Shown: positions 26,838 through 47,052 of the stretch, one piece after another | Layout of the letters: every line of letters begins with the position of its first letter | How positions within the stretch are numbered: the stretch's first letter is position 1 | DNA from: a virus | Strand: one strand, 5' to 3' | Virus record (IMG/VR): IMGVR_UViG_3300028571_000009 | DNA: 64,000 nucleotides | Notes under the pieces: model-generated | Databases searched by the model: none | Told to the model about the DNA's origin: nothing | The model's input: only the letters and a program-made list of their open reading frames with translations | Made by a program: the position numbers and the translations under genes

Positions 26838-27413
26838 ATGGCCATTAAAGGACAACCACCATTAAACCTTTCAGAATCACAGATAAAATATGCACTGGAG
26901 AATACTAATTCTATTCGACAGGCCGCGGCATGGTTACACGTTAATTACTTGACGTTTAAAAAGTATGCCAGGTTATATATTGACCCGGCTACAGGTAAGA
27001 GTCTATTCGCCTTGCACCTGAGTGAGAAAGCTAAGAAAGCATGGGAAACTAGATTGAATCCACAGCTTAAAGACCCGACGTCGAAAGTTCGACCGATGAC
27101 AATGTGGAAAAAAGCTACCCTTGAAGATATCTTCGCGGGCAAGCATCCAAATTATAGTCGTAAGATTCTAGTTACTCGAATGATTCATGAAGGACTGATA
27201 GCTGAATGCTGTTCACATTGTGGATATAACACCAGAAGAGAAGTCGACTTTAAAATGCCATTAAAATTGTGGTTCTACAACCACGACCCAAAAGATTTAT
27301 CACAAGATAACATTAGATTGTTATGCTTCAATTGCTATTACCTTATAGCAAATCCAAACTATGCACATATCAGTGAATTGGAAGGTGATAAAATGCCAAA
27401 AGCGGGATTCTAG
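26838..27413 (+). CDS. HTH plus degenerate HNH-like protein
   Basis: N-terminal HTH-like, CSHC, N.RLLCFNC; first His absent. Confidence 0.55.
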   Translation: MAIKGQPPLNLSESQIKYALENTNSIRQAAAWLHVNYLTFKKYARLYIDPATGKSLFALHLSEKAKKAWETRLNPQLKDPTSKVRPMTMWKKATLEDIFAGKHPNYSRKILVTRMIHEGLIAECCSHCGYNTRREVDFKMPLKLWFYNHDPKDLSQDNIRLLCFNCYYLIANPNYAHISELEGDKMPKAGF

Positions 27414-37621: not shown

Positions 37622-37871
37622 ATGAACTACCCTTCTTAGCCTTCATTTAACGGGCTAGTAGAATACCCGTAATATCTTATATCATAAGCCGTATCGATAC
37701 TCTTATAAGCTCTATAAAGCACTATCTTGTATAACTGCTTGATAATCAATTAACTATAACTAATTGATAATCAATATCATAAAGTTTCGGAAAGTTTCAT
37801 TTGGCCTTGGTCAATCGGTATCTATCTATTATATTTAAGTATAAGGGATAGAAATAAAAACCCTTCAAATT

Positions 37872-42637: not shown

Positions 42638-42934
42638 GTGGCTTATATGAGTGCTAAGGTAAAAAAGAATTACGAATTAGTGTATTACGACAATTGGCGC
42701 GGTGATTCAAATGAGATATCAATTGCCCGTTTGAATGACGGATTAGAATCGGGTGCGTTTGAATGGTTGGGCACCGATAAGATATCGGATGAGCCGCTTG
42801 AATTTCTACACTACATATATAGGTCGTCTGCACGTGATTGTGGAATGGGCAGTGTTATCATATACCATATGACATATGATGTTCATTTGGAGTTGGGTAT
42901 TATTGTTCCGATATCGTTTGGTAATACGGTATAA
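42638..42934 (+). CDS. Hypothetical protein
   Basis: ORF. Confidence 0.45.
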   Translation: MAYMSAKVKKNYELVYYDNWRGDSNEISIARLNDGLESGAFEWLGTDKISDEPLEFLHYIYRSSARDCGMGSVIIYHMTYDVHLELGIIVPISFGNTV

Positions 42935-42952
42935 GTTTATTATCTTAATAAT

Positions 42953-43023
42953 ATTAGTTAGAGAGTTATAGTATCCTTAGCTTATTGCGTATAGTAACGC
43001 TGTAACTTCTCTAACTATTTTTT
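42953..43023 (+). ncRNA. Candidate ~70-nt hairpin sRNA
   Basis: Promoter (TTG 42918, TATCTTAA 42941) followed directly by a long hairpin and T tract; no ORF. Confidence 0.5.
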
Positions 43024-43048
43024 ATTTAACAATTTAAACTAAACTATT

Positions 43049-43204
43049 ATGCTAATATTACAAACTATTAAAATTGCTGTATTAGCAGGATTTATCATAC
43101 TAATAGATAGTTGTTCAAACACTAAAGAATTATATAAACATTATCAATCACTTCCAACAAGTAAAACAGATACATTTCAATTGTATTATGATTTTGTGGA
43201 GTAA
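43049..43204 (+). CDS. Small lipoprotein-like protein (not in ORF track)
   Basis: Hand-translated 51 aa; hydrophobic leader then DSC. Confidence 0.45.
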   Translation: MLILQTIKIAVLAGFIILIDSCSNTKELYKHYQSLPTSKTDTFQLYYDFVE

Positions 43205-43220
43205 TAAAAACTTAAAACAC

Positions 43221-43463
43221 ATGAAACAACAACTAACACCAATACCTTCGGGACAAGATTTACTTAAAATGTCTAAACAGTCTGCTTTTGATGCTGGTAT
43301 GGCTTATCAAAAATCTTTAGAAGAAAAGAGTTATACATACGAAGATTTAGTTAAAGTGTTTAATTATGCTCAAGAATATACTATGGTTTCAAGATTTGCG
43401 GAAGATGGTTTTACTTTTGACCATGATTTAACACATTTACCATCATTTGCAAAAAACCTTTAA
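43221..43463 (+). CDS. Hypothetical protein
   Basis: ORF. Confidence 0.5.
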   Translation: MKQQLTPIPSGQDLLKMSKQSAFDAGMAYQKSLEEKSYTYEDLVKVFNYAQEYTMVSRFAEDGFTFDHDLTHLPSFAKNL

Positions 43464-43566
43464 AATTTTGCTGATTAAGATAACTATTTCTTTCTAACAT
43501 TAAACATGTCAGAGTCAGCAATATGAATCATTTGGTAATATCAACTTATTATCTTATCTTAATAAT

Positions 43567-43851
43567 ATGAAAACAAGAACATACTACTTGCCATTGGCAA
43601 TAACCATTATTTCGTTAACAATTAGCGGATGTGCCTTTTACTACAAAATTAATCGACACTTTAGTCAAGGTGAACAAGTTTACATTCAAAGACGTGATGA
43701 TTGTGGCCGTCCCGATAAGTTTGGTGAAGTGACAGAACAACCAAACAGTAAGGACAGTTCCGGCCGGATTATCTATAGAGTTAGAGATAGAGATGGTTGG
43801 GTAATGCCTTACTCTGAAAAATTTCTTGATTCACTAAACAATTGGTTCTAG
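43567..43851 (+). CDS. Hypothetical membrane or lipoprotein
   Basis: ATG 4 nt after TATCTTAA; N-terminal hydrophobic segment. Confidence 0.55.
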   Translation: MKTRTYYLPLAITIISLTISGCAFYYKINRHFSQGEQVYIQRRDDCGRPDKFGEVTEQPNSKDSSGRIIYRVRDRDGWVMPYSEKFLDSLNNWF

Positions 43852-43905
43852 AAATTGTGCGGTGAATCATTTGGTTGATTCACCGTAATTCCTTATCTTA
43901 ATAAT

Positions 43906-44244
43906 ATGGGAAAGAAGATAAATAATCCGGTTCTAGAGGCTGCAATCGATTGCTTTATTGAAGAAGCGAACGGTGTTATCGCTGAATATCATAAACAACA
44001 TTTAAGTAATGTTCCGGCCGAACCTATCAAAACAGCCGGAGGTAGTAAATATCTTAAACTAACCCGTAACCGGAGCGTGTGGGGCTTTATTGCCTTATGT
44101 GATGGTAAGATTGGGAAATATGAAGTCTCAGAGGGTGACTTACTAAAGGCTGCTAGTTATAATGCGCCAGCACCGGGTTATCGTGGCAATATTCTAATGA
44201 ATAATTGTGCATACGGTCCATACGGTCCATCATATTTAAACTAA
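43906..44244 (+). CDS. Conserved phage hypothetical protein
   Basis: G.KY.K, SVWGF, GDLLKAASY.AP...RGN pattern. Confidence 0.6.
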   Translation: MGKKINNPVLEAAIDCFIEEANGVIAEYHKQHLSNVPAEPIKTAGGSKYLKLTRNRSVWGFIALCDGKIGKYEVSEGDLLKAASYNAPAPGYRGNILMNNCAYGPYGPSYLN

Positions 44245-44360
44245 AAAAGTTTGGTAAGTTAGATACAGTTGATTAAAGATATACAGTTTGGCTAGCAATT
44301 CGTCAGCCCTGCTTGCGTAAAACTGATTGTTATGGGCTGGCACGGTTAAATTAATCTAAA

Positions 44361-44603
44361 ATGGAATTAAAGAAACGAATTGAATTAGCAACTAAAGATA
44401 CAGTTGGCTATTCAGAAGCAAGTAATAAAGAAAGTTTTATGGTTGGAGTTAGTGTTGCACTTTCTAAAGCAGAAGAACATTATGAAAGAGAGTTGACGCA
44501 GCTAAGAAGCCAAGTTGAGAATTTAAAGTCTGCCTGTAATACATATATGACAGACCTTAAAACTTTCGCTACTATTGTCAACCGTTATTCGGAGAACGAC
44601 TGA
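44361..44603 (+). CDS. Cassette 1 hypothetical protein
   Basis: ORF between GTTATGGGC and GCCCATAAC. Confidence 0.55.
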   Translation: MELKKRIELATKDTVGYSEASNKESFMVGVSVALSKAEEHYERELTQLRSQVENLKSACNTYMTDLKTFATIVNRYSEND

Positions 44604-44688
44604 TAGTGCTTGCCCATAACGTGCCGAGTATTGCCGATGGTGGGGCATAAAACCACCAATGTTTAATTGAAATACAAAACTTAAAAAT

Positions 44689-44979
44689 ATGCAGACAGAT
44701 ACATTAAAAGACAAAACCCCCACTATTGGCAATACTTTGTTATATGCTGTTAAAAATGGGCAGTTGAAAAGGTGGTTTTACGAGTTCCAACACGGACACC
44801 CATTTCTACTATCCGAAGAATCAGACATAATTGTAGAAACAAGATTGAATGACAAAGCAAGTCAATGGATGAATGATGAACAGATTAAAGAACTCGTAAA
44901 ACTTCGAGTAAAAGCAATGTATAAAAAGAAATTTCCAAATGCAAAACGGTGGTCGTTGCCCATTTTTAATTGCATATAA
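44689..44979 (+). CDS. Cassette 2 hypothetical protein
   Basis: ATG inside hairpin loop; stop is the TAA of the TAAC core. Confidence 0.6.
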   Translation: MQTDTLKDKTPTIGNTLLYAVKNGQLKRWFYEFQHGHPFLLSEESDIIVETRLNDKASQWMNDEQIKELVKLRVKAMYKKKFPNAKRWSLPIFNCI

Positions 44980-45033
44980 CGTGATGCAGCTAACCGAAGG
45001 CGGTAATTTTACAACTAAATTAAATACGAAGCA

Positions 45034-45228
45034 ATGAATTTCAATATACCACAAATGTTTTTACGAAGCAGGATTTACCGCTTTTGGTTAGATGCTGTTA
45101 GCGGTAGGTTTGTTCCTATTCGCTATTACATAACCGAGTTTTTCTGTTGGGTTGTCTGCGGAATAGATTTTTACAAAGACTATAAAAGGTTTTATAAAGG
45201 ACAAGATAAAGGACAAAGTGTCCCTTAA
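45034..45228 (+). CDS. Cassette 3 hypothetical protein
   Basis: ATG inside hairpin loop. Confidence 0.45.
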   Translation: MNFNIPQMFLRSRIYRFWLDAVSGRFVPIRYYITEFFCWVVCGIDFYKDYKRFYKGQDKGQSVP

Positions 45229-45445
45229 ACTTACCGCTAACTACTGCATTGGCGAAATAAAACATAATTAAAATGCTAACAATATCAACTACTTACGATT
45301 GCAAATACCAAGTCAAAGGAATGAATGAATATAAATTTGCAAAGAAGAAACTATTTAACACACAAAACAAAAATAATATTACTTATAACGGTTGCAGTTT
45401 ACCCTATAAACAGAACTATTATTTTATCAATTGAATACGCTAAAA

Positions 45446-45766
45446 ATGAAAAATAAAGTAAACATTCCAACAGAAAATTGTACATGTAAATTTGTAGTAA
45501 TGGATAATTACATGGGCGGTTATAGCTTGTACGCGACTAAGTACGCTGCATATCACCGTGACGTTATTCGTTCGATTCCTTATTTGGATAATACCGGTGG
45601 ATGTCTAGGTGGTGGTAGAATCAATATTACCGATGGTAAGATTACCGCATATGGATACTCAGTAGATTTCGGTACACCGAATCAAGAAATAGTAGAATCA
45701 CTGCTTAAAGAATATATTGCTGATAAACCAATCGAACTCGTTGTAGAAATGGGTGTCGGTTACTAA
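45446..45766 (+). CDS. Hypothetical protein
   Basis: ORF with GGG.I.I...I..YGYS..FG pattern. Confidence 0.55.
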   Translation: MKNKVNIPTENCTCKFVVMDNYMGGYSLYATKYAAYHRDVIRSIPYLDNTGGCLGGGRINITDGKITAYGYSVDFGTPNQEIVESLLKEYIADKPIELVVEMGVGY

Positions 45767-45886
45767 AATTATTGATATGACAAAGTTAGACAAAGAATGG
45801 TTTAATGGTTTATTTTGGGGAGTTTTAATTACAATTGAAACAATTATTGCTTTAAGACTTATTTTTTAAAATTAAAATCACACAAC

Positions 45887-46486
45887 ATGTTAAGACCAAA
45901 TGCAAAAGATTTCTTTACTCGTTTACACAATGTTGAAGTAAATCAAAAATACAACAAGAAATTACCTTACTCATTCCATTTGGAAATGGTGCACGCCCAG
46001 GCATTGAAGTTTAAAGATTGTTTAAACTCGAACCAGACAGTCGCTGATAGTTTAGAACGTACATTAGCATTCGAAGGATGTTACGGTCATGATTCTATAG
46101 AAGATGCTAGACTAACGTATAACGATATTAAGGAAAAATTCGATGAGAAACTGGCGGAGGTTATTTTTCTTTGCACAGAATTTCGTGGACGTAACAGAAG
46201 CGAACGCAAACCGGATGCATTTTATAATGAGATGATTACCAACCGAGTAGCAGTGTTTGTCAAGTTATGTGATATCATAGCAAATGTGAAATTTTCTATA
46301 TTGACCAATTCAAGTATGCTTAAGAAGGCGAGTACCGAATGGCCTAGGCAACGACGATTCTTTGAATCGTTTGTAGAGTATACACCGATGCTGACCTATT
46401 TAGACCGCTTATTTGCTTTAGACTGCGAAGGTTATAACATTCGCATGCTAAAGCAATTTGCTTTAGAATGCGAAGGTTATTATTAG
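45887..46486 (+). CDS. HD-domain hydrolase, (p)ppGpp hydrolase/Mesh1-like
   Basis: Q.Y...PYSFHL..V, GHDSIED, VKLCD.IAN. Confidence 0.7.
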   Translation: MLRPNAKDFFTRLHNVEVNQKYNKKLPYSFHLEMVHAQALKFKDCLNSNQTVADSLERTLAFEGCYGHDSIEDARLTYNDIKEKFDEKLAEVIFLCTEFRGRNRSERKPDAFYNEMITNRVAVFVKLCDIIANVKFSILTNSSMLKKASTEWPRQRRFFESFVEYTPMLTYLDRLFALDCEGYNIRMLKQFALECEGYY

Positions 46487-47052
46487 TTATAACCCTATTA
46501 GCACTAAGCTCTTATTCGGGGCCTAAGAGCGTGCTAGTTATAGGCGATAGCTTATCGTGCTATAAACCTAATGGTTGGGTCACATTAATAGCGCAACATT
46601 ATGATGCTCCAATCGTAAACTTATCGCAGGTGGGAAAAAACACCGATTGGATGCTGAATGCATTACGTAATGAGCTCCGATTGAATCATTACGATTATTC
46701 CACAGTGTTTATATACGGGGGAATTAACGATATATTTGGTGGTCGCAAGGTTACTGATGGGGTCGATAACATTAAGCAAATGGTTGATTTATGTAATCAT
46801 TATTATATTCAGCCGGTTGTTATATTAGGGTATGACCCGAATAAAATTAATATCAATACAAACCGAGACGGAGAAGAGCTTAACAGAAAACGCTATATCA
46901 AATATCAGCACATATTGCAAAATCTACATTTAGTAGCCAAGATAATACCGGTTGATACTACGATAACTAGAGATTATTCTTCGGATGGGATTCATGTAAA
47001 CGGTGCGGCGCAAAGGAAATTTGCTGATTGGATAGTAAATCATATGGAATAG
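46468..47052 (+). CDS. SGNH/GDSL hydrolase
   Basis: GDSLS, GGIND, DGIH. Confidence 0.85.
   Translation: MRRLLLVITLLALSSYSGPKSVLVIGDSLSCYKPNGWVTLIAQHYDAPIVNLSQVGKNTDWMLNALRNELRLNHYDYSTVFIYGGINDIFGGRKVTDGVDNIKQMVDLCNHYYIQPVVILGYDPNKININTNRDGEELNRKRYIKYQHILQNLHLVAKIIPVDTTITRDYSSDGIHVNGAAQRKFADWIVNHME

Follow-up and report, generated by a model that had tools for sequence, protein, structure and literature searches.

A short orphan array of hairpin-bounded gene cassettes in a very large freshwater phage, probably part of a phage-borne integron-like recombination system

Integrons are regarded as devices of bacteria, and recently also of archaea, that require a specialised integrase, IntI. A locus in a very large freshwater phage raises the question of whether phages carry a counterpart of their own. 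The locus lies at positions 44284-45410 of a 64,000-nucleotide stretch of the IMG/VR record IMGVR_UViG_3300028571_000009 (the window, by which we mean this whole stretch of analysed DNA). The source phage has its genes oriented on a single strand, a G+C content of ~36%, about 20 tRNA genes and a gene for transfer-messenger RNA (tmRNA). An initial annotation, made from the sequence alone, had read the locus as an integron-like cassette array with inverted attC-like hairpins that contain the gene starts. Our computational analysis leads to a similar view. With a probability of roughly 0.85, the locus is a short orphan cassette array of a phage-borne integron-like site-specific recombination system.

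Inspection of the sequence revealed five successive helices in the locus, 0-6 nt apart, in which two hairpins of ~20 bp alternate with three long-range GTTA...TAAC inverted repeats around the bodies of small open reading frames (ORFs). The two complete elements have the layout described in the initial annotation, namely TAAC, arm, ATG-bearing loop, arm and GTTA. In site 1, the TAAC (44617-44620) is followed by a spacer of 4-6 nt, by arms at 44627-44645 and 44718-44736, by TT and by the GTTA that starts at 44739; its A+T-rich loop of 72 nt holds the ATG of ORF B at 44689. Site 2 consists of a TAAC at 44977-44980, arms at 44987-45007 and 45075-45096, and a GTTA from 45097, with the ATG of ORF C at 45034 in an A+T-rich loop of 67-68 nt. 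A scan of the whole window for TAAC-hairpin-GTTA elements with a stem of 20-21 bp returned just these two sites. Furthermore, the two ends of each cassette body form an inverted repeat, which measures 15 nt at 87% identity for cassette A, 24 nt at 92% for cassette B and 15 nt at 93% for cassette C (coordinates in Table 1). This is the shifted complementarity that had been claimed, in which each right core pairs with the next left core; all three pairs are real, and each is longer than first stated. The TAA stop codon of ORF B sits within the terminal TAAC of cassette B.

The comparison with other phages enabled us to define the limits of the units. ORF B has 82 protein relatives at 55-96% identity, and 54 loci encoding it were fetched for the comparison of neighbourhoods and junctions. 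None of the 15 neighbouring ORFs of the window recurs within ~4 kb in these 54 loci, even where ORF B is 98% identical. The DNA homology with close ORF-B loci runs from 44608-44617 to 44980-44982 and breaks exactly after the TAAC at either end; the different contexts number at least 11 upstream and at least 12 downstream. Two of the loci, L017 and L030, share the same upstream cassette and have differing downstream DNA. Because the homology breaks at TAAC on both sides, the mobile unit is 44621-44980, comprising the hairpin, the body and the terminal TAAC. For cassette C, locus L156 carries a copy at 96% identity with unrelated DNA past both TAAC ends, and Logan contigs from three lake runs (X3, X4 and X6) match the window from 44975/44977 to 45241/45245 and then diverge. 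The TAAC-bounded mobile cassettes that had been postulated are thus seen in many unrelated contexts, cassette C behaving like cassette B. The crossover had been placed at AA|C; it falls within the shared TAAC(G), and no finer placement is possible. In the locus L025, the cassette directly upstream of cassette B (1613-2374) encodes an N6_N4 DNA methylase (Pfam, E 4e-34), whose start codon lies within the long loop of the cassette's own hairpin site. For the same locus, the comparison consists of a single 2.7-kb contig, L153, from a relative of the window phage (83-85% nucleotide identity); its homology stops at 44245, immediately in front of the array, and the contig ends short of the array's right border.

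The hairpins belong to a family that is found in other phage arrays. In many of the fetched loci they recur along the gene strand, spaced 150-900 nt apart, with the consensus ATT-n-TAAC, G(G/T)Tnn, a ~20-bp stem, a loop, the stem, T, and GTTA-n5-(C/A)GT. The TAAC and the GTTA are invariant, an unpaired 5-nt spacer is present on one side, and the loop length is bimodal (~30-39 and 60-79 nt). Cassette size ranges from 220 to 1573 bp, with a median of 454 bp. The core pattern in other arrays, a test named beforehand, proved general. The right core of one site and the left core of the next pair over a median of 15 nt, and over at least 9 nt in 120 of 148 cases, compared with medians of 6 nt with the site's own left core and 5 nt with a random partner. 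At position 11 of the next-site pairing, a G.T pair stands in 91 of 95 cases. The longest ORF lies on the folding strand in 163 of the 174 cassettes and is co-directional with the recombinase gene described below. The hairpin travels with the downstream gene, in agreement with the proposed reverse polarity relative to classical integrons.

A Pfam search of five long contigs with relatives of ORF B identified a tyrosine recombinase in three of them (L017, L018 and L021), always adjoining the array. These recombinases are 266-277 amino acids long, and their genes lie 0.2-0.9 kb downstream of the cassette-B arrays (Table 1). The proteins comprise a SAM-like N-terminal domain and a catalytic domain, and the catalytic R, H-x-x-R, H and Y are invariant across the three aligned sequences. 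Their best matches are archaeal XerA proteins (PDB 4a8e, E 5.9e-39; NCBIfam XerA_Arch, 176-197 bits, below the equivalog cut-off of 220). Against TIGR02249, they score 145-174 bits in two stretches (cut-off 265), and in the comparison with VchIntIA (2a3v) they have 35 residues where IntI has 83, so that the IntI-specific segment of ~48 residues is missing. The search for an IntI-like recombinase, which had been recommended, thus yielded an array-linked tyrosine recombinase in relatives, though one that is Xer-like and not IntI-like. The source annotations call the family members simply XerD. The distance from cassette B to the recombinase further downstream is 1.2 kb in L107 (contig of L017) and 2.4 kb in L074 (contig of L018); in L142 (contig of L021), a 57% relative of the cassette precedes the recombinase by 3.7 kb.

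The recombinase alignment was then scanned against IMG/VR, which gave 79 loci, many of them in contigs of 100-465 kb. Around these loci, 248 hairpins were counted upstream on the recombinase strand and 2 upstream on the other strand, with 13 + 5 downstream. The hairpin density climbs towards the recombinase gene, with up to 14 detected sites within 8 kb. In almost every one of the 79 loci, the sequence TAAC|TATNATATAT (TAAC|TAT(N)ATATAT) is conserved 50-70 nt before the recombinase start, as an attI-like terminal site. In public metagenomes, the recombinase family (L070, L071, L072 and the 79 IMG/VR loci) numbers at least 6754 protein clusters at E <= 1e-40.

The two complete sites of the window are members of this family. 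A covariance model, R1, was made from 61 long-loop sites taken solely from recombinase-adjacent arrays of other contigs. It matches site 1 at 44609-44751 (105 bits, E 2.1e-21) and site 2 at 44969-45109 (79.3 bits, E 1.5e-15), both on the + strand, and across the 64 kb nothing else falls below an E value of 0.2. With a model of the short-loop sites, R2, these two sites were again recovered, on the + strand only (E 1.1e-8 and 2.7e-8). The segments 44284-44328 and 45242-45265 gave no covariance-model match, and the former folds with -5.6 kcal/mol (z -1.2). The partial elements that the initial annotation placed at 44284, 45232 and 45386 are therefore statistically unsupported, and they are kept here as plausible decayed remnants.

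The junctions and the linked enzyme also bear on how the units came to be shuffled. T4-type promoter/stem-loop cassettes are small ORFs in hyperplastic regions and are thought to be moved by homologous recombination between repeats. The present arrays resemble them in having small phage ORFs bounded by repeated structured motifs and in their modular shuffling, and the cassettes may in principle have been exchanged likewise, by homologous or microhomology recombination between the hairpin repeats, with the recombinase serving another purpose. Such a process would draw on the conserved stretches among the hairpins (TAACG, xxAG/TT and TATA), and it would be in line with the reassortment of hairpins and bodies at GTTA (see below) and with a promoter-bounded gene shuffling next door in the same phage. 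However, the junctions lie at one shared core of 4-5 nt even between unrelated arms, which is too little identity for homologous recombination; the self-complementary ends and the fixed G.T at position 11 would not be needed; and the position and strand of a dedicated tyrosine recombinase, together with the TAAC-bearing site, would be coincidences. We consider this explanation unlikely.

Another explanation takes the units for miniature transposons of the single-strand IS200/IS605 type, inserted 3' of TAAC by an HUH (Y1) transposase. The same tetranucleotide at both unit ends, a subterminal hairpin 5-6 nt from the left end and the fact that each unit ends in a fresh target, which leads to tandem arrays, would all fit. 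However, the hairpin is present at the left end only, the right end pairing instead with the sequence just after the left hairpin, and the linked enzyme, beside which the arrays terminate at a fixed site, is a tyrosine recombinase. Among the ORFs examined beside the arrays, where no search aimed at TnpA was made, there was no Y1 transposase. This explanation is scarcely credible to us.

Fold energies revealed a difference between the two strands. Folded as DNA, site 1 reaches -17.6 kcal/mol on the + strand and -13.5 kcal/mol on the - strand, and site 2 reaches -13.9 and -9.6 kcal/mol, respectively. The same helices form on both strands, the + strand being better by ~4 kcal/mol per hairpin. In related arrays, where the sites were detected in a strand-neutral manner by Watson-Crick pairing only, the non-canonical stem positions comprise 471 G.T/T.G and 64 A.C/C.A. 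This excess of G.T over A.C on the gene strand identifies the gene strand as the folding strand, and both the energies and the counts bear out the better-folding + strand claimed earlier. The bias is carried by the fixed G.T pairs and a 5:1 bulge, not by extrahelical bases of the attC type.

RNA folding of the array also recovers all five helices. The helices could be mRNA structures alone, which act in translation start or in RNA stability or processing on a polycistronic early transcript, with mobility being unrelated. The genes and folds lie on the sense strand throughout, the non-Watson-Crick positions are overwhelmingly G.U and the starts are placed in exposed loops, as would be expected of such structures. 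They leave unexplained, however, why the homology breaks at TAAC in a dozen contexts, why the body ends are mutually complementary and why the hairpins are oriented 248:2 relative to a tyrosine recombinase with a conserved terminal site. As the whole explanation, an mRNA function is highly unlikely, and the hairpins of the recombination system may have an extra role at the RNA level.

The location of the start codon is a property of the site class. Among the long-loop sites, 100 of 153 have a loop ATG from which an ORF continues across the 3' arm and the GTTA core and on into the body; the median leader before this ATG is 32 nt, and the median distance between the ATG and the 3' arm is 35 nt. 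In the short-loop sites, the start is downstream of the GTTA in 99 of 106. The sites of the window enclose 18 codons of ORF B and 22 codons of ORF C, so the claim that the start and the first ~17-21 codons lie in the hairpin holds with 18-22 codons. The 3' arm, the core and the outer stem double as coding sequence and recombination structure, and this sharing of coding sequence with the site structure is the reason for the recurrent short N-terminal motifs in unrelated cassette proteins.

These features can be arranged into a mechanism that follows the classical one. In classical integrons, the folded bottom strand is cut by IntI within the 5' core, at AA|C, after which replication resolves the product. 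In the phage system, each cassette begins immediately behind one TAAC and ends with the next, the hairpin site coming first and the ORF body after it. In the excised circle, the complementary body ends would complete the outer stem and thereby produce one long folded site, in which the outer stem, the TAAC/GTTA core, the 5-nt bulge and the inner stem would correspond to the attC R box, unpaired spacer and L box. On the folded + strand, the outer and inner stems would serve as two recombinase binding boxes, each marked by a fixed G.T ~11-13 bp from the core, with the 5-nt bulge between them. The recombinase would then cut the folded + strand at TAA|C and exchange one strand as IntI does. Cassettes would leave as circles and insert at the site beside the recombinase gene. 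The array of the window was presumably laid down by such a recombinase, and it may now be movable only if an enzyme is encoded in another part of the genome or brought in by a co-infecting phage.

Several points weigh against an integron-like system at this locus. All of the evidence for it is in silico. The recombinase is without the segment that IntI uses on folded attC, which would make single-strand chemistry an assumption by analogy, and conserved G.U pairs on the sense strand are equally expected of mRNA structure. The inner stem itself is supported by an alignment in which 96.5% of the cells are paired, as opposed to 67% after shuffling and 36-47% after sliding; compensatory double changes occur at 18 of its 24 pairs, and a single G.U stands unchanged throughout (61 of 61 sequences). 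The sites behind the covariation counts were, however, chosen by a pairing criterion, and these counts are partly circular. The contigs of runs X3-X6 contained no excision joints and no circles; they contained window-identical fragments at low depth and cassette C in other flanks. The reassortment of hairpins and bodies at GTTA, observed in L046 and L159, is unpredicted by a one-strand exchange at TAA|C. A B-like body stands behind a site-2-like hairpin at L046:1218-1588, and the C body stands behind a short-loop hairpin at L159:1440-1632; across L046, L159 and L158:1380-1650, the same ORF body is accompanied by different hairpins or by none. The presence of the same body behind different hairpins indicates that exchange takes place on the GTTA side too. 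Finally, a tblastn search of the 64-kb window turned up no relative of the array recombinase, and the attI-like motif has 15 matches there against 13.3 expected, which is the chance level.

The last two results agree with the earlier statement that the window holds no integrase, and relatives that share cassette B do have a recombinase beside the array. Because there is no recombinase and no attI-like site in the window, and because the flanking elements are decayed, the locus is an orphan array, with cassettes B and C intact, cassette A with a decayed upstream site, and decayed remnants downstream. Directly behind the last TAAC of cassette C, a stretch of ~19 nt is similar between the window (45242-45260) and L158 (1646-1665), and it loosely resembles TAAC|TATNATATAT. 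The segment 45242-45260 of the window may be a terminal site that decayed after the recombinase was lost.

Table 1. Coordinates of the array components in the window, and of the recombinase genes next to related arrays.
Feature	Position	Strand	Remarks
Degenerate short hairpin, upstream end of the array	44284-44328	+	no preceding TAAC; followed by ATT and GTTA; weak fold
Cassette A body, ORF A 44361-44603 (80 aa)	44329-44620	+	inverted ends 44329-44343 / 44606-44620
attC-like site 1	44617-44742	+	~20-bp stem with two G.T pairs, 5' bulge; model R1 match
Cassette B, mobile unit of 360 bp, ORF B 44689-44979 (96 aa)	44621-44980	+	limits from homology and junction alignments; inverted body ends 44739-44762 / 44957-44980
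attC-like site 2	44977-45100	+	21-bp stem with two G.T pairs and one mismatch, bulge; model R1 match
Cassette C, mobile unit of 261 bp, ORF C 45034-45228 (64 aa)	44981-45241	+	limits from L156 and Logan contigs; inverted body ends 45097-45111 / 45227-45241
Decayed unit, small ORF D 45273-45434, terminal TAAC 45387-45390	45242-45390	+	5'-arm look-alike 45245-45265, no 3' arm
Remnant of TAAC, GGTT and a partnerless 5'-arm-like stretch	45387-45410	+	R1 E 0.23 over 45378-45499
Recombinase gene, L017	5176-6003	array's strand	array to 4655
Recombinase gene, L018	6375-7172	array's strand	array to ~6192
Recombinase gene, L021	from 7653	array's strand	last site 7066

The ORFs of the array and their surroundings were also characterised. 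ORFs A-D gave no match above threshold in Pfam and PHROGs, and ORF A has no relatives in IMG/VR. The AlphaFold model of ORF B is a small helical protein of low certainty (mean predicted local distance difference test score, pLDDT, 63). A nucleotide search with 43500-46500 against 50,697 phage records gave no match, and neither did Rfam in the region (gathering threshold for the whole window; E up to 1 for 44200-45500). A scan of the array for sigma-70 promoters and terminators gave results at shuffle level. Among the flanking genes, the Ocnus-like gene has no relatives in IMG/VR, and the 319-amino-acid neighbour has none in the contigs of five large relatives. Directly downstream of the array, at 45887-46486, lies a gene for an HD-domain phosphohydrolase, of which a 45% identical relative is located within the hairpin array of L113, 3.8 kb upstream of the recombinase; the HD gene of the window may itself be former cassette cargo. 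At its 3' end, a 25-nt direct repeat (46411-46480, 96%) overlaps with palindromes, and the last residues are duplicated.

Directly beside the hairpin cassettes, there is a second kind of modular shuffling, of the promoter type. A 46-nt direct repeat at 43524-43569 and 43863-43908 ends in the ATG of two small ORFs, and weaker copies lie near 27413, 30690, 32144 and 36620. Between such repeat motifs, L153 differs from the window by whole genes, with 42662-43527 missing and one extra ORF. The phage DNA can be followed beyond the window in a public ENA contig of 182,354 bp (behind L154), which starts at window position 37,829 and extends ~156 kb past the window end.

Compared with known systems, the arrays share with integrons their small, mostly single-ORF cassettes, imperfect palindromes with AAC...GTT cores, an unpaired spacer and a variable loop, complementary core flanks for each cassette in the shifted pattern, one better-folding strand, and a tyrosine recombinase gene with a distinct primary site at one end of the array. 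When the - strand is taken as 'top', the recombinase, the primary site and the attC-type sites follow the classical integron order, and only the cassette ORFs are inverted. There are also differences. The enzyme, at 266-277 amino acids, is Xer-like and without the IntI-specific segment; the sites have a TAAC/GTTA core and a 5:1 bulge, and in place of extrahelical bases they carry fixed G.T pairs; the ORFs are on the folding strand and read towards the recombinase, whereas those of integrons are on the opposite strand and read away from intI, driven by a promoter at that end of the array; many sites include a start codon and N-terminal coding sequence; the carriers are large phages of the lytic type; and the window contains neither the enzyme nor attI. 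The system is thus integron-like and is not a classical integron, as it departs from one in the type of enzyme, in polarity and, within the window, in the lack of attI and integrase.

Two further comparisons can be made. Xer recombinases (archaeal XerA and bacterial XerC/D) resolve chromosome dimers at one duplex dif site. The array recombinase is closest to XerA by sequence, yet it stands beside many hairpin sites instead of a single dif. The nearest description in the literature searched concerns clusters of attC sites lacking integron integrases (CALINs) in virulent phages, and none was found of a phage Xer-like cassette system. Seventeen such CALINs were reported in phages, including one with methyltransferase cargo in the Polaribacter phage P12002L, and IntI1 can use five of the six phage sites tested (Qi et al. 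2023, PMC9892861). By description, these resemble the present arrays as phage-borne attC-type clusters without an IntI gene and with methyltransferase cargo, as here in L025. The phage CALINs are treated there as integron parts usable by bacterial IntI1 and no phage recombinase is named; the words Xer and Flavobacteri are absent from the text (PMC9892861). The arrays described here are apparently a widespread phage system, unpublished in this form.

A more far-reaching proposal, to which we give even odds, is that large phages possess an integron-like platform of their own, in which a short Xer-type recombinase lacking the IntI insert works on folded single strands marked by fixed G.T pairs. 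Its cassettes would be read from the folding strand, so that the recombination site serves at once as 5' leader, start and N-terminus. Orphan arrays would be serviced in trans at co-infection, and a gene pool would be shared among unrelated jumbo phages.

Collectively, the evidence points to a widespread phage counterpart of integrons, with arrays in contigs of up to 465 kb. Such a system would explain the unit-by-unit gain and loss of small genes, including DNA methyltransferases, in the hyperplastic regions of large phages. It bears on the question of whether the recombination of folded hairpins requires the IntI insert, and on a possible shared Xer origin of integrons and the phage hairpin-cassette system. 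With the start codon and the N-terminus inside the site, the constraints of DNA structure and of protein coding fall on the same bases. The window, as an integrase-less and partly decayed array, offers a natural test of trans-mobilisation.

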